From NCBI GenBank assembly GCA_021735655.1, contig JAIPGM010000001.1:96001-160000 (forward strand): DNA of 64,000 bases. The letters run 5' to 3'. Below the pieces are notes generated by a model. It did not search any database. It was not told the DNA's origin and saw only the letters and a list, made by a program, of their open reading frames with translations. The translations under genes and the position numbers were made by a program. Below are positions 2 through 30,000 of this stretch, one piece after another. This DNA is from Candidatus Omnitrophota bacterium (GTDB lineage Bacteria; Omnitrophota; Gorgyraeia; Duberdicusellales; 4484-171). Numbering within the stretch: position 1 is the first letter of the stretch; every line of letters begins with the position of its first letter.

Positions 2-3000
2 GGAAAACTGTATTTATATATGATTTATGAGATAAAAGACGATGGTAAATATTATTTGAAGAAATCACCGGTTGATTTAAAGGATACAAAAGTCGTAACT
101 ATCGGCTATGAGCTTATTTCTACTGAGATTGATTCAGATATTAATATAGTAATTGATCAAGCTACTAAGAAACCGAGCACCCAATTTGCTCCGATTGTTG
201 CTGCTAATGATAAAGAAGTAGCAATCCTGGTTAACGGTGATGAACTAGTCGTTTTAGACCGAAAGAAAGGTAAAGAAACTGCCTACGGCTATGTTAAAGA
301 TAAAAAATTCTACCTTTATGCATCAATTGATGTGCTTAAGGCAATCGAAGCCGGTCGATTTTTAGAGACCAAACAAGTTGATCAGAACCTTAAACCGGTT
401 AAAGATCCGGCCACCGGAGAAGAGATAGTTGAAAAAGTACCAGTAGTTGCTGCAGATAAAACAATTGCCGTTATCTTAATTGAGAAAGAAGCCCCGGGCA
501 TTGAGAATTCACACACACTTAATGCTTTAAGCAAGGCTACTGGTAGAAAAGCACGCTACGGCTATAAAGACTTAGCCGATGATAGTCTTTATTTATTTGA
601 TTTAGTTGAAAAGATCAAGGTTGTTCAAGCTGGTCAAAGCTTAACTACTATTAAAATTGATGAAAAAGTCAATACGCTTAGTACTGAAACATTACCAGTA
701 GTTGCCTCTAATGATGCGGAAGTCGTCATTCTGATCGACAAAGAAGCGCCGGGTTATCCAAATACTAAAACTCTTAATCTTATAAATAGAGAAACCGGTT
801 TAGTCACTCGCTACGGCTATAAAGAGTTAGATGATAATAGTCTTTGGTTGTTTGATTCAATTGAAGCACTTAAAGCTGTCCAGGCCGATCAAAGCTTAAC
901 TACCACTAAGATTGACAAAAAGATAGGCACGCTTGAAACTAAAGAAGTACCAGTAGTTGCTGCTAATGATAAGGTGGCGGTAATCTTAATTGATCGACCA
1001 GCTCCTGACTATGAAAATTCAAAAACTCTTAATGTTATAAGCAAGGATAATGGTAGAAAAGTACGCTACGGTTATAAAGATTTGAGTGATGATAGCCTTT
1101 ATCTATTTGATTTGATTGAAACATTCCAAGCTCTTCGAGGACCAGGAACTTTAACTACTACCAAGATTGATAAAAAGGTAGGCACACTTGATACTGAAAC
1201 AATAACTGTAGTTGCTTCTAATGGTTCAGAGGTAGTAATTAATCCAATTGGCGATAAGCTTGTTTCATTAGACAAATCTTCAGGCCGAAAAATCTATTGG
1301 GGTCATCAAAATAGATTTGGAATGTTTTTATTCTCAATGCAAGATTTAACTTTAGTTAACGTTGGCGATCCTTTAACTGGAAGAAAGATTGATCAAAATG
1401 TAAATAGCACACCGGTAAGTGCAAAAGTAGTGGCTACTGACCATTCTAACCGAATAGTTATTTTAGTAAACGGAAATGAGCTTAATACCTTAGATGCTCT
1501 CGGTGAGGTTAGAAGTGATGGTTATGGAGAGATGGATAAAAACGGCGATTTATTTTTATATGGCACAGAGTTATTGAATGCAAGGCCAGGCCAGATTATC
1601 CCAATCTATCCGATTGATCCAGATACTGTTGAGGCCGATAAAGCTAGAGGGGCCAAGGTAATACTTAAGATTAGAGGGGTAGTTGGGGTGGATGGTGTTA
1701 CTACCAAAGCCGTTTGGTTTGAAGTTTATGAGGCTAAGAATTATGATGCTACTACCAAAACATTTACCGGCCAACCAGAATCAAGTGAAATCCATTTAAT
1801 TGAAGCTGGCTCTAAGCCGAAAAAACTATATCTAAAAGACGATAAAATAACCCTAGAAGACCTTTGGTCAGTAGATCGGGCTGATTTTGGCAATCGCCAT
1901 ATTGCTACTGTGGCTGTTGATAAAGATAATTTTGGTGAAGTTGCCAAGGCGATTTTAACTGGCAAAATTGATACCTTAGAAAAATCAGGCGTAACTATTA
2001 TGGTCCGTGAAAGAAGCGATAGCGCTATCTGGTTTGACGTATTTAATGAAACCGGAAAGCGCCTTAGCAGCGAAATCCATATAAATGGCGACAGTCAAAC
2101 TTATATTGTTACCGGTAAAGACTCAAGCGCATTAATGTTGCTTGATGCAGAGGAAAATGCCGACAAAGATGGTTTTCGTAAAGTTTTTAAAATTAACTTA
2201 AGCTCTCCTGAGTCGTTAGAAAAAGTTGCTAAGGCTTTACGTGATCCGGAGAGTAAAGCTTTACTCGGAGAGGTAACTGGTACAATTGGAAAGGTATTTC
2301 ATGACAATGAGCATATAATTTTGTTTGCTTTTGACAGCGAAGGAAAGCTATCTCGAGGTTTACTCGAAGAGGTCGGTCCTACGGCAACTGATCAGCCGCT
2401 ACCGTTTAGAGTAAGAGATGGAACCATCAGAGTTCTTTGGGGAGAGGATGCTTCACAAACTGTAATCGTTGATGGATCGGAAATGCATTATTTAAAAGAA
2501 CGAGCAGTTGACGCTAAGGCTTTTGAGGCAAAGATAAGAGAAGCCACCACCTTTAAAGAAGTAAAAGATTTTCTTGATAATACTCCCGATACTGGTTTAG
2601 TCGCTTTAATCGTCAGCCAAGATATTATTTTTAAGGGAACCCCGGCAGTATTGAACCGGATATATATTCCCGGGTTATTACCTTTATACGAAGTAATTTC
2701 CAATACCGAAACTTCTAAAGTTTCTGAGTTTGAAGGTAAAGTTGAGGCTCGTTTTTATCCCTACACTCAGGAAAGAAAACTATTAGATCCTAGCCGAAAA
2801 GACCTTTTAACTGTTTCAGGGATGATGACCGTTGACGAAGGTCAAACCTTTAAAGATTTGCCAGTTGGATTACAGCAGACTCTTACTGATAAATATGGAC
2901 CAATTGCTCCGGATGCAGCGATAGTCCATCGTCACTTCTATAAGCAAGACGGTAATAAATACGATGAAGTACGTCAGCCCGGCGGTAGGGCTGATTCTTG

Positions 3001-6000
3001 GTTGCAAGGCTATGTTATCGAAGTTGACCATGCTATCGTTGTTGGTGGAAAAGAGTTACGCCAGGTAAATGGTAAGGATCTTAAATATACCATTGAGGTT
3101 GATAGAAAAGGTAATTTTGAAATCGCCCGCGTACATATTGATCATGTTGAATTGGCAACTATTGTTAAGGATCCAGAAAGCGGTAATATAGCTGCTATTT
3201 TTAAACCGGAAACCGGTCTTGTCCCCGATGAGGCCATACTTAGGATTGCTCAATATATTGACATAAATGGTATTGATTCATTTAATGTATCGGATAGTGA
3301 AAAGCAGAAAATAATTGTTGTTGCTAACGATATTTTAGAAAGAGATCTAAGGGCAGTGCCGATTACCGATGGCGAAAGAGAGCTAGTATCTCAGTTGATT
3401 TCGCGAATAAGTTTTCAGGCTGATTTTGTGGCTAAAAAATACTATAAGCTTGGTCAATTGCATAAAATTGTACTTGCGGAAAAACCACGAACAATTAGCG
3501 ATATCATTGGTTCTGTTGGTAATGATCCGATAGCCCGCGCTAAGATTGATAATAGACTTAAGGTGATTAGCCAAGGTTTAGGCCGACAGATGCCACGCGG
3601 CGGAGTAGCAGCGTTGACTATTACCCCTAGTTTGGTTTTACAGCTCAATGGGAATATTATGCGTGAGTATCGTTTTAAAGAAGATCGTTTAGCCAGGCTA
3701 ATTGCTTTTGAACAAGGTCAGGAATTGGCAGTTAATGTAGCGTTTAATAACCGAGGTGATCCAGTTCAAACCTTTAAGCTTTCAAAAAGCGAGCATTCAG
3801 ACCGTCAGGTTGGCTCACAAGTAATTGCTTGGGGCCAAACTCCGATGGCCGAGCGTGATGGTGAAATTTCTGATGAAGCTGATAGCTCTGAAGCTAAAGT
3901 TATCTTTGAACAGGATATTCCGGAGACTGCTCGGGCATTTCAGGAATTTGCCGCTAGCTTGAAAGAGAAACATGGGGTAACGGTTACCGGAGATCTCTGG
4001 GAAGCGATGGGTAAAATGGGAATTGTTCCGTCAACCATGATTACTCGCAGCGTACTTTATGAATATCCGCATAGTGGTAATATTGGTTCAACCAGCTTTA
4101 CTTCACCGCTTATTGAAAATAACGGTAGGGTTGAGATTGATCCGCAATATCGTGATTCAACTAAACAGATTGAGATGCTTTTTGTGCCTAATGATCCGCA
4201 AGGCCGGACATTGGCAACTAGATTTATTACCGAAGAAGGGTATAACTGGGTTATTAATATGTGGGGGCTTAAGGGCACCGATGCCCCGTTAGGAGTTTTG
4301 CCGGCCAGCATAACTATTAAATATGAAAATGGTAAATATAGCGGTTATGAGTTTAGCCGCTTCAAGCAATCAATTAGCGGCGAAGAATTAAATGCTGAAT
4401 CAGGTTTGAATTTATATAGTGGCCTGCAGGCTTACGAATATGAAGTATTTAATTCCGCTGTTGTACGTAATGTAATTTATTCTTCACAGGCTCAACTTTT
4501 AGGCGAGCGTTATGCTTTTGTAACTGGCAGGCCGGCTAAGGAGATTTTAGGAACCTCAACTTTAAACAAACCAGCGGTTGAGACTTTGTTTTTTAATCCC
4601 AACTCATCTTTACGCAGCCCGGTCAGATCAGTGTTAACAGTTGAACAAGAGCTAGCTAATAAAATTATAATTCCTGAGATGATCGATGATCAACATTGGA
4701 TTACTCCGCCTGGCGAAACAGTGTTGATTCAAACCGATAAAGGCATTAAGCCGGCGGTTAGGGTTGTGGTTAAAGATCAATATAGCGTACGCTACGAAAT
4801 AGAAGAAGGTAAACAGATTACCTATATTGTTGCTTTAGAGAGTGAAGGTTCAGCAATCCATACTAGATTTTGGCAAGAGTCAAAATTCATCGGTGACAAA
4901 GCAATAACTAAATATCGCGTAAACATAACTGATGAGTGGAAGGCTGATTTAAAAGCTAGTGCAAAATATATAGCTTTTATGCCGCTTGTGCTTGCGGCAA
5001 TTGTGCTTTTAGGTTTTATTTTATCTAAGGTCGGCTTTACTCTAAGAAGGGCCTTGCAGCTTTTAGGATTAATCTTTGATGTCGTCATTAGACCGATACT
5101 TTTAATTCCTCATCTTTATAAAATATGGAAATACGGAAGCAGCAGTACCGGAGATTTCTTTAGACGTTGGCTTTGGCCGTTTGGCTTAAAGGAGTCTAAT
5201 CCTTATGTTCATGCTTATAAGGTTTGGCTAGCTATTAGCGGAAAAACCGACGAGAAATTTACTGAAGGCATTAACAACCCCGACACTACTGATACCACTG
5301 AAGCCGAGATTACTAAATTGTTTGAGGAGATGTATGAGTTCTCAGTTAAACTTAAAGACGCCCCTGATTTTGTATTGTATCTTGTTTGGAGAAAGAGGAT
5401 GGGGGCAACTGAAGCTGAAATGGAGGAGCATAAAGACATCTGGTTTGATATTATTGTAGCCAACCAGAACTTTACAAAAAAAAGCAAGGGTACAGTTACC
5501 ATGCAGCATCGTTTTCATTATGACGATCTTGGTAATTTGTTCAGAACCCGTAAGTTCATTGATCGTTATGAACAATACAGAGAAAGTGGAAATCTTGACC
5601 CTTACCGAAAGTATGTTGATTTATTAAACAGCGATCTTGGCGCTATCAACTTATCGCGCCGTCAGCTACTTGAAATAATCCACTATAGTGGCAGTTTAAT
5701 TAATTCATTAAAGTATAGGGGTCGACATTCTGAGTTTGGATTACCTAGCGAAGCAATACTTTGGAAAACATTTCGCACCCTTGACGGTGGACCTTCAGGA
5801 TTATTTGGTTGGTTGGGCATTGCTCGAATACTTTTCAGACAAGGCTCGATATTTGCTATAAGTTTCTTTGTATTCTTAGCTAAATACTTACCGTTAGCAA
5901 AAATTGTAGCCTTCCTTTTTAGTAATCCTTGGATTATCTTAGCTTTAATTGCTATTGCCCTTAGCTTAGGAATATATACTTATTTAAGAAGAAATTACGA

Positions 6001-9000
6001 CAAGGTAAGTCATATGGGTCCGGCCTCAAGAGCATTAGCTTATCCTTTTGTTTTAGTTGCTTCAATTGTTAGAAGCGTGTTGAATGCCTATACTTTAAGC
6101 ATAGCTGCCATATTTGCCGGTGGAGTATTAATGAATGATGCGGCAGCTTTCAGTGGTGTAACTGGGTTAGCTTCTTTTTCTGAGGCAGCTTTAGGTAGTT
6201 TAAAAGCAGTTTCCTTAAGTGATCCTTATGTATTAAGCTTTATATTGATGCTAGTTGCTTTGTTTGGGATATTTGGCTTTTTGGATAATATGATTTCAGT
6301 TAAATATAACCCAACCAAGAAAGAGTTCGGCTATGCACCTTTGAGAGACGCAAAGTGGTTTAGTGAAATTGTTTTTTCTGGTGGAATGATGTTGCTTACC
6401 TTTGGTATAAAATTTGTCCTAAACTACTTTACTTTTAAATTTGTAATGGTTCCAACTAGCAGTTATTTGGCGAGCTCTTATGCTCCGCCAGCTTGGGCTT
6501 TTAAAACATATTTGGCTATAATGGCTATTGTAATTGTTATTGTAATTACTGTAAAACTTGTTGCTTATATTAGAAAGCTTAATGCAGTTAGAAAGTCAGA
6601 TACGGGTAAAGTTATGGCAACAGTATGGAGTGATATCAAATCTTTAAAACTTGTTGCTTATGTTAGAAAGCTTAATGCAGTTAGAAAGTCGGATACGGGT
6701 TCAGTTATGGCAACAGTATGGAGTGATATCAGATCTTTAGGAAGAGGCGACATTGGCGATTGGATAGGATTTGCCTTTAAGTGGTTTAGTTTAATTGGCT
6801 TGCCTTTGTTGCTTTATTTCTATGGGCAAGTATTTTTAGTAATTGTCCTTTGGCTTCCTTTTGCTGCTTTTTATATACTGGATACTTTCTTTGTTTTCTA
6901 TATTTTAGAGGGTATAGCCGGATACTTGCGTGGCAGCTACCTTGGTTTAAACCGAATAAGGAATTGGCCGCAATTAGTGGCTAATTTTCCTCATTTAAAA
7001 CAGGCCATTAGGGCTAATTATGCTCATCGGGGAATTCGCAAGGCTGATGGGTCACGCCTAACTAAAGAAGAAAGAGACTCAATAGTTGAGGAGATTTGGA
7101 ATGGAATAATAGAGCATGTTTTTAAGGAGGATAGACTTTTCGAGGAAGAAAGGGATCGATATTCTTACACGGCTGATGGTGGTCCCAATCTCATAAAAGC
7201 ACCGGAAGAGGATGAGGCTTTCGATCGAATTATCTTTTTTGCAACTTCCATGTTCATGCATACACCGCGTATGCCCAAGACCTGGGCAGACTTACGTTCC
7301 CATGCTGTTGTTGATCCGGCTAATGATGAAGATGTCTTTTATAATTTTGAAGGGACAATTACTAGTTTAAATGAAGAAGCAAGGGTAGATCCTGACGATG
7401 ATTCTCTTCCCGGTGTACAGAAAACATTCTTGTGTTATGAGATTTATCTTTATTCTAACCAGTGGTTAAATTTTAAACGCCGAATGCAGGCCTCAGGAAA
7501 ATTCAGGAATACTGAAATTCAGGAGTTACAGAACATATACGATGCAGTTGTTAACGGAGACCTTACTTATAAATTAAAGTTAAAGGATGGAAGAAAGAGG
7601 CTAAGTAAAGCTTTGCAGGACGAAGTTCGTCTTTGGGCCTCTTATAGGTTCCAGCCGCTTATTCGAACTGTTCGGGGAATTGAATATCGTCGAGATGCTT
7701 TAAAGTTGATTGCTAATAGTGTTTATTTCAGGGGGCTTGGCTATACTGATGAGCAAATCAGAGAGGAAGTTAATAAGAAGTTTCGGTTTGTGCTTGGATA
7801 CCAAAGCTATGCTCGACAACAAGCGGATATGGTAAATCCAGAGAAGAAACTTTCAGAACGAATTGCAGCTAGATCTCGCGTAGAAGGCGTCAAAAAAATA
7901 ATGGAACTTTTCCCTGATATATTCGTTGCTAACTTAACTAAAGACGGAATATCAATTTGCATGCAAGGCGGCGAAGAAATAGGCAGCAAAAATGAGAAGG
8001 ATTTCTTTTGGTTAGGTCCTGAAGTTACTCAAGGTAAACCTGAACATCAAAAAGTTCTTTCAATCTGGGTTGATCACGACGGCGGTAATTATGATCATGT
8101 TGATACAGTGGATATGAACCAGGATGATTACTTTGAAGAAGCTTTAAAGCATCCGTTAGTCTTACAGGAGCATAGCCCTGATGTTGCTATTGTTGGTATT
8201 CCTGAGCATATTTTTACTGCTAGCTTTGGTAATGAGGGGAAACTGCTTGCCTTCTCTGATAGCACCTTTGCGAACATGGTTCAGAGGGTAATTGCTATGG
8301 GCGGTACACGTATGCATTATGGTCACCCGGATAGTTTCCGTAAACGATTTGCTAAACGTATGGGCTGGACAGCTTCTTCAAGCAAATTGAACGAAGATAT
8401 CTTTGCTGGATATCGGGCAATACGCTACGGTAAACGAATTAAGTTTATTGAATATCGCCGAGTCGGTAAGGCCCGTGAGGTTAAATTCGCGACTTCAGTA
8501 ATTTTATTTCAGAAATTCGGACGTGGTTCTGGTGAACAAGCTCATGATTTTATGTTATATGAACTTTATGAATGTCAGAACTTTGGTTTCACCAAAGGAA
8601 TGTTTTTCTTGATCAGCTCAATTGGTTTTTATATCAGGAAGCCGGCTGTTGTCTTAGCTGTCCAGGGTTACATCTTTACCTTAATCTTTATGGGTTTAAG
8701 TGGTTTTGTTTCTTTTCCTTTAGAAGCTTTTCTTGGAGTCTTGGGTGTTTTAGCTTCTCAGGGTATTGTGGCTACCGGTTGGTTTGAATTGATATTGCGC
8801 AAGGGCGTAATCCGAGGAACTTCTGATTTAATCGCGATGATGGCTACTGGAAATGTTCCTTTTTATATGGCTCATGTTTATACCAATGCTTTTGGGTTTT
8901 CTGAAGCTCAGGCCGGTATTGCTGGATACTTAGGAAGTGGTCGTGGACCGATGTTACATCATACTCCGATTTTCTATCCTAATTTTAAGTTAAGCTTATA

Positions 9001-12000
9001 TGGATTTTTAGAAGGAAAACAGCTTTCGAAAATGATGATTGTTAATATGGTATTTATTATAGCCGGTATAGTTATCTGGCAGAGTCCGCCGATTCTTTGG
9101 TCAGCCTTATTTATCTTGCTTCCTTTTGCGGCTTACTTTTATCCTAATATGTCTAACCCGGGAGCATTACCGATAGGCGTTACTGTCGGTAGATGGCTTG
9201 AGATATATAAATCTGATCTTTCTTTATGGCGCAAAACCATAGCTTCTGATAATCCTCTTTGGGAAGGTAAGAAATTAGACGTAGTGCTTCACGGAGCAAT
9301 ATTATTTCCTGTATTATTAATAGTCGGTGGTTTTATAGCTCTCTTTATTAAGTTACCGGTTACCGTAGGCCGTTGGTTAAATTCTCAATTTTCTGACCGA
9401 GGCCATGTAATCTCGACCTGGGCTATTAATTTGATTGGTGCGGTGTTTGGTGTGGTTTACTTAGCCAATATGTTGGTTGATAAATTACCTCAATTGGGCA
9501 ACATCATTGAAGCTTCACCGATGGCTGCGGCAATAGTTGCGGCTATAGTTATTGCTCGAGTCCTTCTTTACATTGGAAGTTACTTTTATAATTTGATCGC
9601 TGCCCGTTCTCATCAGGGAGTAAGTGAGGCAGTAGCGGCTTTAACTTTAGCTGGAATTATTCTTGCTGGGTTGAAGTGGGGTTTAGCGCTTAAGGCTTTA
9701 GTAGTTGGCTGGTTTAGCTGGTTACCAGCTTTGTTAGCTAGTCCGATTGGCCCTTGGGTTGCTGCAGTCTTATTGGTCCTTGCAGTCGCAGCAATTGTAA
9801 TTATTGCTTTACCGAGACGTATGCAAACTCATCCTACAGTACCGGCTTGGTTTGTTATTATGGGTGGTTTAGGTTTGCTACTAACAACATTAGGGGTACC
9901 AATAGTGATAAATACCCTTACTATATTTGCTGCGATTGCAGTGGGTTCGTTTGTTAATGGAATAGTTGCTCAGGATTTACCAAGAAAGGCTAAAGAGAAG
10001 AGATTAAAACGTAACCAAGCATTACCTTACCCGGCAACTATGCCAATAACTAATAAATTAGATCGTTCGCTTACTGAAAGTGAAAAAGAAAAAGTTATTT
10101 TAGCTTTTGGCGGAAGCGATGCCTTGGCAACTAATGGTATAGAGTTGAATGATCAAAATCTAGTAATGAGTCCGGCTCTTTCAGCTCCAGCTGAAGTAAG
10201 AGGCGGAGTTCTATATATAAATCCTAATACTTTAAGAGGTCCACCAGAACAGCTAAGAGTGATATTTGAAGGCCATGAATTAGCTCATTTTTTAGGAATG
10301 GATGAAATTCAAGCCAGACAATATACCATCGACTATCTTTTAGCGAATGGTTTACTTGAGAGCCACATTGCTTTCTTAGAGAATAATTCTATTGGTCTTG
10401 TAGCTGATCAGGAATGGTTAGAGGCTTTGAGCCAGAAATCAGTTTCTTTGGATAACGGAATTGAGCTTAAAGTTTATAAGTATAGGCCAGGAGTAAAAGT
10501 TGCTGTTGCTCAGATAGATCCGTCAATTTTACAGCCGCATATTTTAGTTTCCAGTGAGTTGGAAGGTAAGTTGCATTCGGTTGATCGTCGCTCTAACTAT
10601 GTATTGTATTATGATCATGAGACTGGCGAGCGTCTAGATAGCTTTCCTGAATCACGCCTAAAAGTATCTACGGTTACTAGTTTAATTGAAAGATTCCAGG
10701 ATCTTCATCCAGATTCACGAATAGAGATTATTACTGGTAACGAAAACCTTTTCTATAACAAGCCGATAGTTACAGTTATAGCCAATAAAGCTTACCATGC
10801 TGTCGGCGTTGACATAGAGAATCGTAATTATCCTATGCTTGTAATTTGGGCTGACGGTGCAGTAACTATCGAGGAAAGTGTTAGTTTCGAGTTTACTGAT
10901 TTTGATCAAAATGAAGTCAGAGTGTTGATTAATGGGAAAGAAGAAGATATACGCTATGCTACGGTTATCCAGTTAGTTTTAAATAAACAAGGTGTTGTTA
11001 ATCCGGGATCCCAGTTATATTTCTTTGATGATATCAAACATTTATTTGCGATGCCACGATTCAGCTCAGATGACTTTCCAGGAACTTTACCCAAGGGTTT
11101 GATGAGCGGAGCCATATTTTTTATGGCTGATCAACTTCTATCTGAAAATGCCCAGCGTGTAATCGACTATTACGATTCACAAAATCCAAAAACTGTTCAG
11201 GATTTTAATTTAACAAGCACCGTTTTTAGCAGAAGTGCCGATGGCCAAGATCGGGTAAGATTAATCAATATACCAGCAGAGTTATTAGAAGCTAGGTTGT
11301 TTGAAGCCGGATACTTACCTGATGACTATTCTATTGATCAAAGAAGAGGTGTAATTACTATAAAGCTTAGAGAAAATGTTTATCCTTTTCATATTATTGG
11401 AGTTACAAGTGATGGATTGGTGAAGGAGATAGTAGTTAATGGTAAATCTGGTAAGGTTGGTGTCACTGTAAGAGAAGCTGCCACTATTGCTCAAAAAGAG
11501 GGATTAATTAAGGCCGGAATAGTGGATCAAGGGATGACCGTTCGTTTAGATGTGGGTGATTTACGTTTTGGTAATGTTATAGTGGATAAACCTGGGCCTG
11601 AGAGGGCTAGTTCTTTAATCGTTTATACCCATATGCCTCTTGATAATGGTAAACAAAATAGACAATCGCCTCCCAGCGATGATAGATTAGGAGGAAGGGC
11701 TAGCCATAACGTGGCTGTGGCTGGTCCTGCTTCTAAGCCTTTGGATAATGGTCGACCAGGAAAGACCGAATGGAGCGATTTAATGAATCGCGTTGATCGG
11801 GTAAATGGCCTTAGGCAAGATGCACGAATAGCCGTAGTGCTTTATATAGTAGGAGTTGATCAAGAAATCGATGCCGGAACAAGAACAGCTCCTTTAACTG
11901 CCGGAGAACTACTGGTTAATGTTAATGGCGTAGGCCAGATAACTTCACGAAGAATTTTCCGAATAGTCGGTGAATTAAATCTTGCCGGAGTTACTTTAAC

Positions 12001-15000
12001 TCCGCTTGATAATGGAAGAGATAATCAATCCTCCCTCAGCGTTTCAGGGACCGACTTAAATCAATTATCGGGTGGATCAAGAACGCGGGCCTTAGAAGGC
12101 TTAAGTAGCTTCTACATAAAAACTAATTCAGTACCGGAGGGTATTCAAGAATTGTTTGATAGTCCTTCCGGATTATTAATAACCGTATCTGATTCTGATG
12201 GTGTGGTTGGCTATGCTTGGATTGATGTCCCAGCTGATGAGGATCAAGTACCAGCCAGGGTAGTCGTTAGTTTAAGTGACCGTCAATCTTTGGCAGTAGC
12301 TGAAAAGCTTAACCATGCAGTAATAAAAACCTTTATCGAAAGAAGTATCCTAAGTGGTAGTAAATTCCTCTTATCAACTCCTAGTGGAGAAAACCTTAAC
12401 TTCGCTCAATGGTTAAATCAACAATCACAATTCATCGCTGGTTTAGCCCAAGCCGGAATAGTTGTTGCTGACATTCAAACTAGTTTTTTAATTGAAGAAG
12501 GTAAACTAATGACTGTGACAGTAGCATCAAGACATCAAGATAAAACCAGAGCAAATAGAAAACCTTTAAATAACGGAAAACAAAATAGACAATCGCCTCC
12601 CAGCGATATAGATGGATCCCTGTTAAGGGATCAGGTAAGAGGAAGGGCTAGTCATGACGTGGCCGTGACTGGTCCTGCTTCTAAACCTTTGGATAATGGT
12701 AAGGATGTCGAAAGAGCAGAACATGTATTAGAACAAATAGGGACTGCTTTGGAGGGAGTTAAGGAATTAGTAAGTGCTCATTCTATTATTGTTGGCTTAT
12801 TAGTTGCCACGGTGCTAGTAGCGGTTAGCATTGGTTTATTCTTAGCCATCTGGCGCATATTCTTTTCAGTAAGTTGGTGGTTGCGACGATTGGAGAAGGT
12901 AGAGGCTAAGATGCAGATTCATGAGTTTTTTGTTCGTTTAGATCGGGATAAAGCTATAAAGCTTGTACAAAATATTTTAGCCAACTTCAGGGCAGAGCTT
13001 AAAAAAATTGATAAAAAAATAAATAAAGTGCACAATCGTAAAGAGCGTCTTCCCGAACTGGTTTCCGAGTCTACTTTTGTAGAGGATTTTGCTTATCAGT
13101 CTGATGTAAATGGGGTTACAATTATCGAAGGCCACATGGAACAAATATTAGTTCCTAATCCTAAACGTGAAGATTTAGATTCCAGGATAAAGGGATTAAG
13201 GGAAAGGGAAGAACTCATAACTAAACAAATATCTAAATTGGAAGGTATGTTGACTTCTTGGGAAGAAGCAGCATTAAGGTTAAGATTAGACCAATTGCAA
13301 AAAGAGTTAACCTCAACCCTAACTACTACTCTTGTATATGACTTAGATAGTGAATTAGTTTGGTGTGGAGACTTCGACTATAAATATGGTCAAGAAATTG
13401 GTGATTGGGTTCACTCAAAAATGAAAAGGGTAGTGAATCCAAGGTATTTGCAGCTTGAACAGGAGATAGCAGAAGTAGCTACTAGGTTGGATCGATTATT
13501 AGATGATAGTGCAAGCAGGGAACAAAGAAGACCCACCCCTCTCGACAACGGCACAGAACCTAGCGTGTCTTCTTATCCTCATCCCAGAGCAATACTTTGG
13601 GATTTAGATGGCACCTTAGTCAATACCATGCCACAGGTGTTAGAGAGTTTCGGAAAGGTAATATATTGGATCAGGACGGCCAGTTCGATTGAACCACAAC
13701 AGTCACAATCCCAAATAGCTCAAGATTATTTCGAGCATAAGCCTTGGAAGGCCTTAACTGATCATTTAGTTGATGTTATAGCTCAAGCTCAACAGGATCA
13801 TGTTTCTCAGGCTCAGCTAGCTCAGGTCGCACAAGAGCTAGGCCAACGCTATCAAGCTCCAGCAATGAATCAGGCTGATGAATTAGTTTTTAGTTTTGCT
13901 AAGATTTACGAGGCGGTATTATTAGATGAGGTTGAACATAATCCGCCAGCCTTATTTCCAGGAGCTTTTGCATTAATACATAACGCTAATCAACAGGGAG
14001 TATTACTTTATATTGCTACGGGTACACCGCAAAGGGTAGCTGAAGCTATAGCTATAAACTTACGCCTTGATAATTATTTTAGACGTATATATGGTGTACC
14101 AGTTGATAGTCCCTATCCTTTTGTTAATGGAAAGGCAGATATTTTAGTACAAATAGAGACTGAGCTAGAAATTTCCAGCAGTCAGATTGCTATTGTCGGT
14201 GATTCGGCAGGTGATGTTGCAGCAGCAAGACATCCGTCTCTACCGGAAGGATCTAAGTTTGTTTCAGTCGGTATTGCCAGCAGCCCTGAGAAACGTCAAG
14301 AGTTAAAAGAGGCTGGGGCTGATTTCATTGTTCCGGATTTAGAGTTTACTGGAGGCCAGATAGTTAAGCTATGGTTTCCGGCGGTTCCAGTTGTTCCAAA
14401 TTTACCGCAACGTAACGATAGTTTACCTTTTCAGTTTGTTTTTATGACGGTAACTAAATCAAGCCAAGCTCAAGATTTACAGGTTGAGCCTATTGAATTA
14501 AGGCCATTTTCAAGTCGGATCATCGGGTCGGTACTTGAAGGTGATTATACCGGAGCTCCGGCAGAACTTTCAGCTCGTCAAGTAGACTTTAACCGGCCGT
14601 TAGCCGATCTTTTTCCGATCGTAAGAGCCGCTATCGAGACTAATGATGCTGCTGAATTCTTTTATCTAGTAGAAGGTATCGTAGCTTCTGAAGTTCTTAA
14701 TCCGGCTGAAAAGCGCGAAGCATTCCTTACAATTTCTGCCTGGAGTAAATTTATGCCTAATACAATCAAGGGCGAAGGTTACTGTTCTTATTCTTTTGAA
14801 TGGTTTGCTAACGCTGCCTTAGAGCATCAGCATAGCAATCAAGGTGATCAAGAGTTAAGAATCGGATCTTTGGGCTCAGGCGATGGTTTAGCGATTTATC
14901 AGAATAGAACCTTAATGAGAATACAAGGAGTAACTCCTAAAATTACCCAGTTTGAAATTGATCCGAGAAGTATAGATCGATCTAAGGTTCTTAACCCCGA

Positions 15001-24000: not shown

Positions 24001-27000
24001 AATTCCTTCATTGCGTGTTCCTTATGATAGTAGTTTTCCGGATGCCTTGTCAGCCTTTGGAGCAAAACTGAAAGCTCCGGTGATGATGCTTGACCATTCA
24101 GCTTGTCATTTTAGCCGGGCACAGCAGCCACTTTTAGGTATGATGTATGACGAACAATATTTGAGATCTAATATCGCTATTAATTGGTTAAATAACCAAA
24201 GAGATCTTTCAGAAGTTACTGATTTGCTTTTAGAAGATACAGTTTTAATAGCGGTAAATGCAAATACATTGCTTAATGGCTCTTACGATCCAAAACATGC
24301 GTCGTTTTTAGATGATTGTGATGGAATCCTCGATCGTAGCCCCAAGGAAACAGTAAGCATCGCCGGTCAAGATACTCCGATTGGAGATGCTTTCTTCAGG
24401 GTTTATGAAGCACGCACTGATAAAGCGATAGCTAGTTATAATGCTGATGCTCAGGCTAAACCTTTAGATAACGGAAAGATAAGTCCAGCCGAACAACGCC
24501 TAGTCAAAGATACACTTTTAATTTCCTATCGAGAAGAAACAACCATTCCGGAAGGTTTCCTTAAAGCGGAAGCTGATTCAAAAAGGTTTGAGGCTTATTT
24601 AGATAAGCAAGTTAGACATATTTTATGGGAAATGAGTACAAATATAATTTTACATGCAGCCGGTAATGGCTCAGTAACTGTTAATCTAGTTACTTTAGAT
24701 GGTCAGTCGGCCTTAGAAATTATTTCTGAGAGTGATGCTTCGGAATTCTCATTAAGTAACTTTTTTGTTAGTTATGATGATTTAGTTAATTTTGCCGCTA
24801 ACCTTAGTAGTAAACATGTGGGATTATTACAGATGATGCAATATGCTGATCGTTTCCGATTTACTCATCGAGATGGCATTTTAACTATTGAAATCGTAAA
24901 GTGGCAAGATCAGACACAACCAAAGGAAATTGCTATTGATTTAGCAGTTGATCAGGCTTCAGTTGAGACAGCCTTAGCTAAAGTTAGGACTGCTCCTAAT
25001 AGTAATCGTCAGCGTTTAGAAATACTTTCTCAAGATAAGGGAGAAATTGGTGCAGTAGCTCAAATTTTTATTCAGAGCATTAGTGCGCCTTTAGATAATG
25101 GAAAGAAACTTGACCCTGAGACCGAACTTAGAAGAATCGCTCAAGAGTTAGATGATTTAGGCTTGGGCCAAGCTGATGTCAGTGACAGTATTGATAGAGT
25201 AAGGGTTGCTTTAGGGCAAGGTTGGTATATACCGGAAAATAGGCCGCATATTGAAATTCTAGGCGATGAGCAGGGGAGGCTTTTACGTGCCTTAGATGAA
25301 ACTCATCTGCATCAAGAGCTGCCGGTAGTCGGAGCCGTAGATACAATAGTTGCAAAGTTGTGTGGTTTTTGTTTTCGTTCGGCTGACGTAGTAGTTTTAT
25401 CGCCCAGAGGAAGGAGAGGTTTCTTTATTCGTCGGGCAATTAAACCATATGAGGGTTATCTTACTTTGGTTGGCGGCGGGGTCCAGAGCGGTAGTTATGA
25501 AACAACCGCAAGAATGGAGATAAGAGAAGAGTTGATTTTAAGCAGATTACCAACTAATCCAATACAGATTATTAGTTATTATATTGCCGTAAAGCACATA
25601 TCTTATCTTAAAGGTGCTTTCTTATTATATATTTTAACTGATGATGAATTAGGCCAAGCTAGGGAATCCAGTCGCCGGGTTAATTCAGCTAAGGTAAATA
25701 AGAGCCGAGGAGAATTTATTGCTTGGTTAGCTCAACAGCGCGATCAGGAAGATGGTACTGGCGAGGCTTTTGGAATTTATGAGATTGATCTTGAAACAGT
25801 ATTTGATCGTCATCTACCGAATCCTGAAGTAGCTGGCGAAATTGGCCTAAGAATTCCTGAAACTTACGTTGGTGGTGAAGTTGAAGAAGAGTTTGCCGCC
25901 TATACCCCGGATATATTACAGTTATTTATGCAAGATCCAGCAAGGATAGCCAGAGCTAAAGAGGAATCCTTGAAACTCATCCGAGGACCTTTAGATAATG
26001 GAAAAACCCAGCAAGAAAGGAAACGTATTTTAGCTAGAGCTCGGTCAATCAGAAATACCAACCACGATATTGGTAATCATCTAAATGGTTTGCTAGGCTG
26101 TTTGAAAGAATCCAAAGAAATTGAAGAAGCTTATGCGATTTTTGGAAGATTTTCCGCAGACATTGCTGGTTTAAGAAAGTATCGCGAAGGTGGCGAGGCT
26201 GTTACCGATCAAGTTCTTGATGAAATAGCTCAGGCTTGTGATCATTGTGAAGCATTATTGGAAGAGTTACGTGATAAACTTCTTGAATTTGAATTTATCC
26301 GGACTATGGGTATTGACGATTTGGGTGAATGTTTTAGTCATATGGATCTAGAAATAAGAGGGTGGTTAGTCCAGGCAACCAAAGATGCCTATGATGTAGT
26401 TTTAATGTTGTTACATGACGAGATAGCCATTTTTAGTGCAGTTGAGGCAATAACTTTTATAACTCGAAGAGAGGCTAGCGAAGAAGAACTTGAGGTTCCC
26501 GAGATAAGGGTCAATCCTGAAGGTAGTCGAGTTATAGTATCGATAAACAGTCGTTACTTTTTAGGAATTTTTATGAATATCATCAGGAATTCTTGCACAG
26601 TTTGCAAGGGAATGTCTGGTCCGTTTGCTTCGATTGAAATTGATGAATCAGGAGAAGAATTTAAAGTTGTGGTTCGCGATAACGGACCGGGCATGAATGA
26701 TGCTCAGGTGCATCAATACAATCTTCAAGCGGTCGGTGATCTAACGGCTGTTACCGGAGTAATTTCTTCAAAGCCAGCCAAGGTACATGCTGAATCAAGT
26801 GGCTACGGCCGAGGCCTAAAAGAAGTTATTGCTGATATTGTTTTGCTTGGTGGGCGTACTTTTGTTGAGCGGTTATCAGCCGGAGGCATGCAAACCGTAG
26901 TAATTTTACCGAAACGACAAATAAAGAAACCTTTAGATAATGGCAAAAAATCTTTAAAATCTCGCCTAGCTGAAGCCGATACAGTAATTATTCCTACGCT

Positions 27001-30000
27001 GGTTGGTTTAACTGAGGGTCGAATTACTATGATAGTAGGTGATAATTTTGTGTCTTCTTACCAAACAGTTTTAGAGTTTTTAAATAGTGAAAAAACTAAC
27101 ATAACCGCTCTAAAGACAATATCAGGAGTTTTAAGTGAATTTTTCTTCGACGGTCATCCTAAGGCGGTAATGGTAGGTGAAGCTGATCTAGAGGCGGTGG
27201 GTATAGTTTTACCTGAGAGTGGAATAATTGATCCATCCAAAGATAATGTAGACATAGATGATTTAAGACAAAAGATCCTTGAGCTGCGTGATGTCATTGC
27301 CGGGTTTCCTTTAAGTCAAGTTGAAGAGTTTGAACAACATAAGTTTGATACCTTGGCTGACAATAAAAAACAAAAAATAGACGAAGATTTAACCGTATAT
27401 GCTAATACTCATATCTTTGACCTTAGATTAAGGGCAAAAAATGAAAGTGAAGTTGTGGTAAGAACTTTTAAGAATTCTCCGGTTGTTTCAGATCAAGTAG
27501 AGATTTTGGGAGTTGGCCCGGAAACTATCCAAACATGGTCAAGAATAATAGAAGCTTCAGAATTAATTGCTCTTTTTGGCCAGTTCCCTCAAGAATTAAC
27601 TCCAGCCTTAGAGGATAAAGTTATAGTGAAAGTTGCTGTTCCGCTTGATAACGGCCGGAATAGTTCAGCTGATACAACTAACCAGCTATTAACCCAACTT
27701 GAGCAAATGGCTCGCGGTCAGATTCCTGACGCTCAAGCCAGTAAAATAATTAAACAACTTTTAGTTTTGGGTACCGAGCGTTCGGATGTCCAAAGAGCTT
27801 TATTACTTTACAGTCGCCTGAGAGAGAAGCCACTCGATGGTTTATTTGATAATTATCATATAAATGGTGTGCCGGTAAGATTAGCAAGAGATCAAGAAGT
27901 CGTTTATATGACTAGAACCGGAAAAACTTTTAAACAGGTTTTTGGTGGTAAAAATATTATGGTTGTCGAAGTCCATCCGGATGACGCTATGCTTAATTTT
28001 GGTGATCTTGCCTTTGCTTTAAAAATGTATGGCGATAGTAATACTATTTTTGCTATGGCCATACCTGATCCAGCCGGAGTTTCTGATTATCAAGTAGATT
28101 TTATCAGAGTCCTTTACCTGATTAGTGAGTTTCTTGCGTTCTCAAAATCTGGGGATTTCGTAACCAAAATTGCAGAAAACCCTTTTATGAATACGAGTTC
28201 AAATGTATTAAAGTCTTGGATTCGGAGCGCTGAAGCTAAACTTGGGTCTGATTGCATGGCTCAAGGTGAATATGTAGATTTAGAGATAAACTTACCGATT
28301 GATCAAGCAGCTCGTGATGAATCTGGCCGATTGTTATCATTTGAGACTATATTCCAGGAACCAACTGATGAAGATCAAGAAAAAGTAGATAATTTAGTTA
28401 AGCAGCATTCCGATAGAGATATCTATATAGTTCCATCTCCGTTTTCGAATCATCCGCATCATCGAGCAATAGCCCGGATATTTTTATCAGCTATTTATCA
28501 ATTTAATCCGAATGCCCAGATATTTCTTTGGGATGATGATTTAAGTTTTAGACAGCATCGAATGAGAGCAAACACATTCTATTTCTATAGTCAATTAGAA
28601 CAGGCTCATAAGGAGAAATGGATTGAAAAAATTTATGATTCTCAAATTCTAAGAAGAGGTAAGGGTTTTTATGCCCAGCGAGCCGAACAAATAGCTTTAG
28701 CTGCGGCTGATGCTGGATTTAAAGAGATGATATTTGAGCGTGGCGATGTAGAGGCTTTCCTGGTTATTTTGGCCCATGAGCTTTTTTACGCTGAAAGATT
28801 ATTAAAGGTGAACATTGTTGAACGGCCAGCAGGTAGGCCTCTCGACAACGGTCGTCAATCAGATAAGGTTCAAGAAATAAGCTTTAGTGATAGAGTAGCG
28901 CTCAGACTTTTAAGCTTCTTGCATTTAATTAGAATGCCTACTTGGATTGTTTGGCATCTTACGCCAATTCGTTTTCGGGGTGGAATATTAGTTAGCGGCG
29001 GTGATTGTGCTGGTCTTAACCCAGTTGCCGGATATCTTTCGCGTTATCTTTGGCAAGATGGCCATATGCTAGCCGGGGTTAAAAAAGGCTTAGATGGCTT
29101 GATTAAAGCTGACCCAACTTCTGAGATTGTTCCAATAACTAGGGGAATGGCTAAGATTATGCCTTATGCTCCGAGTTTTGAATTTGCTTCAACCCGCAGG
29201 AATTTAAAAGAGGGAGAAGCTGAGACCGCCGTAGCCTTAGATAATATCCGTAAGAATTTTGGATTTTTAGTAGTTATTGGCGGCAATGATCATCTTTATG
29301 AAGCTAAAAAATTAGGTGAATTATTGGAGAAGGCCGGGTTAAAAGTTATTGTAGTTGGCGTGCCTAAAACAATTGATGCTGACACTTTATACACTAAACC
29401 CTTAGGAATTGAGTCAGCTGCCCAAGCGGTGAACGAATATGTTTATCGGGCAGCAGCTTTACCGGGGTCAGGCGAAGTAGTAATTATTGAAGCTATGGGT
29501 CGGGATTGCGGTTATTTAGCAGCTCGGGCCGGAGATAGAAGAGATGAAGCGATCGCCTTACTTGGTGCCGAGTTAGCCGAAAAAGCCGAAAAAGCCAAGC
29601 CAACTATGGAGACTTATGTTCCCGAGCATCCTAAAACTGTAGCTGAAATCCGCCGCCGGGCTAGAGAAAAAATGGCTAAAGTCGGAGCAATAACTATTAT
29701 TCTTTCTGAAGGTTTTAGAATTAACCAAACAGATGATCCGGACTATGGACCATTGCTAGAGGCTAATCCAGTATTAGCTGAAATCCTTAGAGGGCTTAAG
29801 CCTGACACACAAGGAAATATTGTTATTCCACAAGGTATTGCTGCTGAATTTGTCGCAGCTATTTTAGCCGAATATAATCCGACAATAGAAGTATTAGGTT
29901 TTACACCGCGCGGGGCTATCCCGGTTGATCAGGAAAGAGAGCTTGCTTCCGGTTTTGCCCGTCAAGCTAGAAAAGCTATAGTTGAAAGAATCAGTGGCAG

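Follow-up and report, generated by a model that had tools for sequence, protein, structure and literature searches.

Paired mini-modules between PL[D/N]NG motifs of a giant Omnitrophota gene as in-frame, hairpin-forming repeat units

The window analysed here, the whole 64,000-nt stretch at positions 96,001-160,000 of contig JAIPGM010000001.1 (assembly GCA_021735655.1, Candidatus Omnitrophota bacterium), lies inside one giant gene, of which at least 21,333 codons are covered and whose two ends are both beyond the window. Most of the encoded protein is divided into modules by a short motif, PL[D/N]NG, and two short modules, mini-modules A and B, are copies of a single unit of ~100-120 nt in the linker region of this polyprotein-like gene. 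The unit would mainly conserve nucleic-acid structure, namely a sense-strand stem-loop of 5 + 13 bp and a small hairpin upstream of it. We give about even chances to the reading that A and B are hairpin repeat units that sit in frame within linkers, with a peptide that is a passenger spacer and an RNA that has a punctuation role; that maintenance acts on the hairpin and not on the peptide is our inference.

Repeat units and their hairpins

A sequence-only reading of the window had singled out the two mini-modules as highly similar at the nucleotide level. Alignment confirms both their placement and their likeness, and the observation was essentially right. Outside a 21-nt indel, the copies are ~90% identical in nucleotides (87% of the alignment columns if gaps are counted as mismatches), and their flanks are unrelated. 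A Smith-Waterman comparison of the mini-modules scores 104, against 20 +/- 4 for shuffled sequences. The upstream motifs of the two copies differ at 4 of 15 nt and the downstream motifs are identical at all 15, which delimits the repeat unit as the body plus the downstream PLDNG only. The units, 102 and 123 nt long, are multiples of three, stop-free and in frame. The hairpin formed by the insertion in copy B has a palindromic core, GATCCC-TGTTAA-GGGATC, at 12615-12632.

Where copies A and B encode the same residue, their codons are identical at 30/30 and 54/57 nucleotides, compared with 22.0 and 43.1 expected from codon usage (p = 1.5e-4 and < 5e-5, respectively). This excess of synonymous-site identity points to shared DNA ancestry or to a constraint at the DNA or RNA level, and not only to constraint on the peptide; the codon changes between the copies are five nonsynonymous and three synonymous. 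Recent gene conversion had been proposed as the source of the identity. Common DNA descent holds, but it is not the sole cause, since the differences between the copies preserve hairpin pairing and a nucleic-acid-level constraint thus also adds to the nucleotide identity. As far as the sequences can tell, duplication, repeated insertion and conversion are equally compatible with the origin of the copies.

The main hairpins of copies A and B rank first and second in stability among 12,790 50-nt segments (−26.8 and −26.1 kcal/mol, compared with a mean of −7.3 and a standard deviation of 3.3), and by arithmetic these top two ranks fall in 0.35% of the window. Minus-strand folds are 11-14 kcal/mol weaker, because the stem contains G.U pairs. 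Of the synonymous recodings, 99.2-99.3% fold less stably than the two actual hairpins, and for the whole body of copy B none of 3000 recodings was as stable. Within the 45-nt hairpin, all five substitutions between the copies keep the pairing, and two of the 18 pairs are compensatory (simulation p = 0.0004-0.002), one changing from C-G to U-A and the other from A-U to G-C. Each of these double changes combines one synonymous with one amino-acid-changing substitution.

Such hairpins are not a general property of the linkers, the other 49 of which have none. The mRNA of these ordinary linkers, over the motif and ~75 nt after it, has slightly less structure than the gene on average (GC-corrected residual between +0.5 and +1.2 kcal/mol, with a standard error of ~0.2). 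Copies A and B have an identical stretch of 30 nt (11651-11680 and 12578-12607), whose minus strand reads as a small hairpin with a T-rich run behind it; this matches a terminator-like consensus with respect to antisense transcription.

Several points weigh against a maintained RNA structure with a punctuation role. There are two copies only, which share one ancestor and hence are not independent, and the covariation rests on five substitutions; a column-shuffle test (121/500) is uninformative with two sequences. The structure was also derived from the same sequences that were used to test its pairing. After GC correction, other segments of the window reach residuals of −14.6 and −13.8 kcal/mol compared with −15.8 for the top hairpin, which is therefore top-ranked without being a vast outlier. 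Quasi-palindrome template-switch mutation could produce compensatory changes without selection. The main hairpin was not flagged as a canonical intrinsic terminator, its tail (AAGCCUUUGG) being too U-poor. A programmed frameshift site was rejected, as no slippery heptamer was seen upstream of the hairpin by eye, a dedicated scan not having been run. An internal start behind the sequestered GGAGG was set aside as well, no start codon being found by eye at a usable distance. Rfam gave only a sub-threshold group II intron fragment (17.6 bits, gathering score 32, E = 0.78), and a group II intron was rejected on this score. Covariance models of this hairpin repeat and of the analogous one in locus L037, described below, recovered no further copies in ~0.5 Mb of related loci.

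The encoded peptides are hydrophilic and of low complexity (Kyte-Doolittle −1.0 to −1.2), with 72% disorder-promoting residues, and the 29-36-aa peptide is probably disordered. An AlphaFold single-sequence model of aa 3859-4248 has a mean predicted local distance difference test (pLDDT) score of 34, with the mini-modules lowest at 22-29, values too low to count as evidence. Neither 1.84 billion cluster representatives, searched exhaustively, nor 34 related loci yielded a homologue of the mini-modules.

A blastn comparison of the 64 kb with itself, the nucleotide self-comparison that the sequence-only reading had suggested, gave six significant non-self high-scoring segment pairs (HSPs), corresponding to five repeats, so that the mini-modules are unusual against the background. 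Two are tandem repeats in the motif-free N-terminal part, at 430-1223 (two HSPs; 255-nt period, 69-74% identity) and at 6549-6739 (93-nt period, 94%). The other three are dispersed and all overlap motifs: the mini-modules themselves, 12678-12738 with 15642-15702, and 46793-46836 with 50807-50850. Through the second of these, modules seg5 (with a membrane anchor) and seg7, which are otherwise unrelated, have a common N-terminal tag, KDV(E/S)RAEH(V/I)L(E/G)Q. Recombination at linkers may have left this tag as a second trace, or the tag may be a common N-terminal signal.

The remaining short pieces between motifs that had been listed from the sequence are real and correctly placed (Table 1), although two 7-aa pieces, at 46793-46813 and 50807-50827, had been missed. 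A resemblance claimed between the pieces at 36473-36601 and 52244-52342 does not survive: their Smith-Waterman score of 16, compared with 17.7 +/- 4.1 for shuffles (p = 0.66), is that of chance.

The border motif and the giant gene

PL[DN]NG occurs 53 times in frame (50 PLDNG and three PLNNG), starting at aa 3879 (nt 11636), where arithmetic from residue composition predicts ~0.015 PLDNG. Pro, Leu, Asn and Gly are invariant in all 53 sites and the following residue is Lys or Arg in 46 of them; the flanks show a hydrophilic bias and are otherwise unconserved. Synonymous variation is seen at all five motif codons, which indicates that the peptide, not the DNA, is under selection, and a role of the motif as a DNA or RNA signal was rejected for this window. 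Asn-Gly is the dipeptide most prone to deamidation. An explanation by Asn-Gly lability or avoidance was nevertheless rejected, as the dipeptide occurs 61 times outside the motifs, compared with 59.7 expected. A protein-L-isoaspartate O-methyltransferase (PCMT) module, at 31718-32515, is part of the same protein as the 53 invariant Asn-Gly motifs.

The motifs fall between domains. None of the 53 lies inside any of the 16 Pfam envelopes (8.8 expected, P = 6e-5), and the guanylate kinase, PCMT, HATPase_c and RidA domains fill their modules to 5-49 residues before the next motif. The first PLDNG starts exactly at the end of the NAGPA-like domain, and eight homologues stop 0-26 residues past that point; homology to a stand-alone FkbO/RidA protein stops five residues upstream of a motif. 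Of the five hydrophobic helices that are strongest within modules, four sit 19-42 residues after a motif (p ~0.001, binomial estimate). On these grounds PLDNG[K/R] is well supported as a module-border motif, and it is probably a processing motif. The sequence-only reading had considered the motif as a possible cleavage site from which peptides would be freed; domains, protein ends and helices bear out the border, and cleavage itself would be a step beyond it.

Twin-arginine-like signals, KSLSRRSFGFMVTALGVGSFLTVC and ...GVSRRDFEIRSLLGGLCAFC, occur right after a motif in the modules at 32516-32641 and 55175-55306, which fits modules that are separate exported proteins. An uncleaved chain would appear to put ATP-dependent modules (two PFK and the guanylate kinase) on both sides of a membrane.

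The only two HExxH sites in frame are both in a domain of ~150 aa with the signature YPA(T/S)xP...GPPEQLxVIFEGHELxHL, in which the YPA(T/S)xP segment always precedes. It is embedded one to four times per giant protein, recurs one to three times in those related Omnitrophota proteins that were examined, is ~50% identical in lineages with other motifs, and no Pfam family reaches threshold for it. A confident model predicts a zinc metallopeptidase fold like that of minigluzincins and of the M48 and M56 families, and identity to the minigluzincins proabylysin, projannalysin and selecase, and to BepA, HtpX, Ste24 and BlaR1 of M48/M56, is 13-18% over aligned residues. The domain is a candidate cis-encoded processing protease, and its presence in cis fits a polyprotein carrying its own protease; no protease linked to PLDNG was found in this analysis, and nothing ties this domain to the motif.

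Over the length of the window one frame is free of stops, and the remaining five frames contain 1,041-2,590 stops. The motif-free N-terminal part of 3,878 aa has ~20 hydrophobic helices and 1,3-beta-glucan-synthase-like, HExxH and NAGPA-like domains. The first of these is a fungal/plant-type 1,3-beta-glucan synthase (FKS, PF02364; 7202-8695, E = 2e-54) in a bacterial giant gene, with many transmembrane helices on either side. Its Pfam match is Glucan_synthase. The modules downstream of the motif-free part contain HAD phosphatase with methyltransferase, a PEP-utilising domain (PEP-utilizers_C), NUDIX, a histidine-kinase-type ATPase (HATPase_c), two PFK, PCMT, guanylate kinase, a GlpX-type FBPase (FBPase_glpX), a phosphorylase-like domain, two radical SAM domains and FkbO/RidA. 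A hydropathy scan gives 32 transmembrane-like segments across the frame.

Some modules are paralogous (seg18/33, 19/42 and 37/53; 25-29% protein identity, no nucleotide match), and a similarity between seg27 and seg41 was rejected as chance. In word-indexed protein searches, seg1-5 and the HExxH domain had no match, and seg40-42 had a single stand-alone homologue. For the bodies of seg2 and seg3, which lie between the two repeat units, protein searches found no homologues; a foreign origin of this cassette was ruled out, its G+C content and that of its third codon positions (GC3) being typical for the gene.

Table 1. Positions of features in the window (nucleotides unless marked aa; Str., strand)
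Feature	Position	Str.	Description
Giant Omnitrophota-type multi-enzyme gene fragment			N-terminal 3,878 aa motif-free, then 53 modules split by PL[DN]NG
Stop-free frame	2..64000	+	21,333 codons, runs off both window ends
HExxH domain, copy 1	10004..10456	+	aa 3335-3485; HELAH at 10274-10288; no Pfam family
NAGPA-like (phosphodiester glycosidase-like) domain	10466..11635	+	final domain of the motif-free part; C-terminal end at the first PLDNG
Mini-module A with leading motif	11636..11737	+	aa 3879-3912; next motif to 11752; PLDNG-KQNRQSPPSDDRLGGRASHNVAVAGPASK-PLDNG
First PLDNG	11636..11650	+	CCTCTTGATAATGGT; upstream border of mini-module A, outside the repeat unit
Repeat unit, copy A	11651..11752	+	102 nt; 29-aa hydrophilic peptide KQNRQSPPSDDRLGGRASHNVAVAGPASK and downstream PLDNG 11738-11752
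Small hairpin	11665..11680	.	5 bp; within the 30-nt stretch identical in A and B
Main hairpin, copy A	11690..11734	+	5-bp lower stem GGAGG/CUUCU, 13-bp upper stem 11696-11728, 7-nt loop
seg2 and seg3	11753..12562	+	88 aa and 187 aa, including the leading motif; internal motif 12002-12016
Mini-module B with leading motif	12563..12685	+	aa 4188-4228; next motif to 12700; PLNNG-KQNRQSPPSDIDGSLLRDQVRGRASHDVAVTGPASK-PLDNG
PLNNG variant	12563..12577	+	upstream border of mini-module B
Repeat unit, copy B	12578..12700	+	123 nt; 36-aa peptide and downstream PLDNG 12686-12700
Insertion, copy B only	12608..12628	+	21 nt (7 codons); own 7-bp hairpin
Main hairpin, copy B	12638..12682	+	5-bp and 13-bp stems, upper stem 12644-12676, 7-nt loop
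Short repeat spanning a motif, start of seg5	12678..12738	+	SK-PLDNG-KDVERAEHVLEQ; 85% nucleotide identity to 15642-15702
Partner repeat, start of seg7	15642..15702	+	SK-PLDNG-KDVSRAEHILGQ
HExxH domain, copy 2	18497..18976	+	aa 6166-6325; start of seg10, ~20 aa after PLDNG
Short inter-motif piece	31454-31717		88 aa
Short inter-motif piece	36473-36601		43 aa
Short inter-motif piece	39137-39184		16 aa
Short inter-motif piece	41672-41890		73 aa
Short inter-motif piece	46793-46813		7 aa
Motif doublet	46793..46836	+	PLDNGRVPLDNGKP, 7-aa 'module'; synonymous identity marginal, p = 0.04
Short inter-motif piece	50807-50827		7 aa
Second motif doublet	50807..50850	+	PLDNGRVPLDNGKP; synonymous identity with 46793..46836 marginal, p = 0.04
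Short inter-motif piece	52244-52342		33 aa
Motif-bearing example peptide			GPASKPLDNGKDVE

In its general plan the protein can be compared with two known kinds of giant bacterial protein. MARTX toxins have an N-terminal membrane-active part and an effector array that is freed by a cysteine protease cutting after Leu in the linkers. The Omnitrophota protein is likewise giant, has an N-terminal membrane part and has modules split by short candidate processing sites; unlike MARTX, it has no C80 protease and no RTX repeats by Pfam in the window, its enzymes are of housekeeping type and its motif is a strict hexapeptide. Judged by its domains and helices, it matches the 'Archaeovorin' or 'multi-enzyme metabolic cluster' class of giant Omnitrophota proteins. 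Shared with that class are a giant gene, stop-free over the window, many transmembrane helices, closest relatives in Omnitrophota metagenome-assembled genomes (MAGs), and glycosyltransferase, methyltransferase, NUDIX, radical SAM, FBPase and PEP-utilising domains. The SecA-DEAD and C39 domains, in contrast, are not found inside this window: neither a SecA-DEAD-like domain nor an N-terminal C39 or S8 peptidase has a Pfam match within it, and these may sit outside. In West-Roberts et al. 2023 (bioRxiv 10.1101/2023.11.21.568195) and Nielsen & Lui 2026 (bioRxiv 10.64898/2026.06.07.730766), term searches returned no linker motif or polyprotein; HExxH and hairpins were not among the terms. The former paper states that the cleavage points of giant Omnitrophota proteins were unknown, which blocked a per-product analysis.

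Motifs and repeats in related genes

An exhaustive HMMER search with aa 3313-4512 yielded 129 relatives. These align only over the HExxH and NAGPA-like domains, and nearly all of the matches end at or just past the first PLDNG. In the Genome Taxonomy Database (GTDB), 34 related loci were found, almost all in MAGs named 'Candidatus Omnitrophota bacterium', with an HExxH domain that is 37-65% identical; most have no stops over the fetched stretch, of up to 20 kb. Both PL[DN]NG and the mini-module peptide are absent from 130 related proteins and from the 34 loci. When the PLDNG motif doublet, not the repeat unit itself, was sought by degenerate scans in GTDB genomes, IMG/VR and JGI metagenomes, no PLDNG-type relative came up; the sole match, L002, is a chance one in a frame full of stops.

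Relatives use other motifs. The complete protein P0116 (7,976 aa) has R[SA]E[MVLI]R 21 times, compared with 0.11 expected, with varied synonymous codons, and P0042 has it ten times, outside all of its Pfam domains. Weaker cases are SSLG in P0070, SSP in P0002, P0028, P0033, P0040 and L021, and DGG in L019. In P0002, P0042 and P0033 the local motif stands on both sides of the NAGPA-like domain. Motif use is not universal, as many relatives are without any enriched short motif, and the enrichments of 'RSSA' in L003 and 'ISPF' in L012 were rejected because they come from HEAT repeats and paralogous domains, not from linkers.

Repeats analogous to the mini-modules were found in the DNA of two of these genes, L037 (the P0042 gene, GCA_964482725.1, 53% GC, motif RSE[MV]R) and L038 (the P0116 gene, 24 kb). 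Four units of 60 nt occur in L037, all of them opening with RSEM. They form two tandem pairs separated by 6.1 kb, their identity is 82-93%, and the P0042 gene has no other short nucleotide repeat of high identity. Each unit forms a 16-bp hairpin, with four compensatory pairs between the units, while the peptide has turned over from HLNSVDSS to PLTPVAPK. Nine of 500 shuffles reach the observed covariation, and slid controls have no double changes, compared with the four observed. By their sequences, the L037 units are an independent replicate of the combination of a motif-bounded repeat, a hairpin, compensatory changes and peptide turnover.

At the motif sites of the L037 gene (2001-16328), the codons are CGC TCC GAG in nine of ten cases. 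Motif codons in L038 are diverse, yet TCN is used for every Ser and CGN for nearly every first Arg. The motif may act at the nucleotide level in L037. P0042 is encoded by a complete gene of 4,775 aa at 2001-16328 of the locus. A separate gene of 12,124 aa (portion 1-1721) precedes it at a distance of 280 nt, which means that motif-punctuated giant genes occur in tandem there. In L038, at 23060-23260, the two strongest hairpins of the P0116 gene flank the last RSEIR; the z-score of this 201-nt region is −5.9, and an identical 18-nt repeat encoding ILDEAQ precedes each hairpin.

Explanations and their bearing on giant Omnitrophota genes

The preferred account can be set out in a few conditional steps. 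A short tract would have been duplicated, inserted or converted at linker-coding DNA, its copies now flanking seg2-seg3 as direct repeats. If PL[D/N]NG[K/R] is processed, the peptide between two motifs would be removable from both neighbours, and the double motif would render the translated spacer disposable. The mRNA hairpin could then serve as local punctuation, that is, as a point of pausing, processing, stability or attenuation, first right behind the membrane part of 3,878 residues and a second time 0.9 kb further on. A spacer that possibly affects stoichiometry is the only role from the sequence-only reading that is still compatible with the data, although it would act via the RNA hairpin and not via the peptide. 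Intercistronic repetitive extragenic palindromic (REP) and other stem-loop elements are known to stabilise upstream mRNA segments in operons. Like them, the present structures are strong sense-strand hairpins between functional units of a very long transcript; unlike them, they are translated, inside an open reading frame, and their effect on the mRNA is a proposal.

Rickettsia palindromic elements (RPEs) are hairpin-capable repeats of ~100-150 nt that lie in frame, are translated as homologue-less peptides and have several near-identical copies per genome (PMC10969869). A comparable selfish element, like RPEs or like MITEs (transposable elements of the miniature inverted-repeat kind) and REPs, could survive in harmless disordered linkers and keep its hairpin for mobility, with no role in the host gene. 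The mini-module units resemble RPEs and intragenic MITE-like repeats in being in frame, hairpin-forming, translated and near-identical, and the likeness extends to their size (102-123 nt, RPEs being ~150 bp and often in frame in Rickettsia genes; PMC10969869), to a length that is a multiple of three without stops, to a hydrophilic peptide without homologues and to compensatory differences. The analogous repeats of L037 and L038 are lineage-specific in sequence, and those of L037 are in tandem, as would also suit such an element. Unlike RPEs, however, there are only two copies in 64 kb, none was added by the covariance models, and the hosts are giant Omnitrophota genes. Both copies lie in an identical register relative to the motif, after one and ending with another, and the G.U pairs make the fold specific to the sense strand and to RNA. 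Comparison of the unit ends by eye revealed no terminal inverted repeats, and no clear target-site duplication was recognised; the flanking motifs are 13/15 and 11/15 identical, which was judged to be motif-level similarity without a computed baseline. We consider a purely selfish origin rather unlikely.

Recent duplication or conversion of a neutral linker expansion, with no function of peptide or RNA and with pairing that is coincidental or due to template switching, seems to us unlikely. Recent common ancestry is evident from the excess synonymous-site identity, nonsynonymous and synonymous changes are similar in number (five and three), and two other short repeats overlap motifs (12678/15642 and the doublets). 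With transitions only, 20% of random sets of five substitutions keep all pairs. Two compensatory double changes are nevertheless improbable even with transitions only (p = 0.002), codon choice favours the stem in both copies, and a neutral origin would have to account for the top two stability ranks in so small a part of the window and for the recurrence of the combination in L037, with four covarying pairs.

Functional small peptides, acting as signals, handles or regulators of ordered processing after release by cleavage at the flanking motifs, are improbable. HIV Gag SP1 and SP2, flavivirus 2K, potyvirus 6K and the three tandem 3B/VPg copies of foot-and-mouth disease virus (FMDV) are peptides bounded by a cleavage-site consensus. 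Each lineage of viral polyproteins has its own site consensus, and short peptides are sometimes present in similar tandem copies. Like the viral spacer peptides, the mini-modules are bounded on both sides by the protein's own motif, and motif-bounded short peptides also occur in P0042 (20 aa), P0033 (14 aa), P0040 (20 aa) and P0116 (15 aa), in three lineages one of them adjoining the NAGPA-like domain downstream. Unlike the viral cases, the host is a bacterium, the neighbours are ~50 metabolic-enzyme modules, and it is the RNA hairpin and not the peptide that is conserved. The peptides are of low-complexity hydrophilic composition, show no sequence conservation between lineages or in the databases searched, and tolerate changes where the RNA stem is kept, and their release presupposes cleavage at the motifs. 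The signalling-peptide and recognition-handle roles proposed from the sequence find no support in the five nonsynonymous compared with three synonymous changes or in the peptide turnover of L037, and a released functional peptide is the least supported of those early ideas.

That the mega-enzyme stays uncleaved and PLDNG serves in it as a structural hinge or docking turn, with the mini-modules as longer flexible tethers, would suit the lack of a protease tied to the motif, the many related giant genes without an enriched short motif and the published proteomics, which left processing unresolved (West-Roberts et al. 2023, bioRxiv 10.1101/2023.11.21.568195), but it is highly improbable in view of the single transmembrane helices and twin-arginine-like signals directly after motifs, the ATP-dependent modules that would lie on opposite membrane sides, the 53/53 conservation of Pro, Leu, Asn and Gly amid unconserved hydrophilic flanks, and the resemblance of lineage-specific motifs to viral polyprotein cleavage sites.

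A wider conjecture, which we regard as distinctly doubtful, is that giant Omnitrophota genes encode bacterial mega-polyproteins with two layers of punctuation, a peptide code and RNA hairpin cassettes, that set the ratio of the N-terminal membrane machine to the enzyme array. The first layer would be a lineage-specific border code, PLDNG[K/R] here, RSE[MVLI]R in L037 and L038, and less clearly SSP, SSLG and DGG. In the second, at a few borders, a hairpin cassette would truncate, pause or stabilise the giant mRNA, its spacer being flanked by motifs; the upstream modules of a truncated or stalled message would still be released intact, and any rescue tag would be on the spacer alone.

Whether giant Omnitrophota proteins act as one chain or as many cut proteins is a standing question. 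The 53 PL[D/N]NG[K/R] sites exactly at domain borders offer an explicit candidate border code, for which relatives use different codes, and a metallopeptidase-like HExxH domain without a Pfam family is found in the same genes; such a code makes the question of cleavage directly testable. The highly similar pieces of such genes, in two unrelated lineages, are in-frame hairpin-forming repeats between two motifs, a finding that relates to known kinds, in-frame palindromic repeats and polyprotein spacers. If the hairpins are selfish, they would extend the Rickettsia in-frame palindromic elements to another phylum, with linkers as the permissive sites of giant genes. If they are functional, a reading frame longer than 64 kb would contain punctuation at the RNA level.

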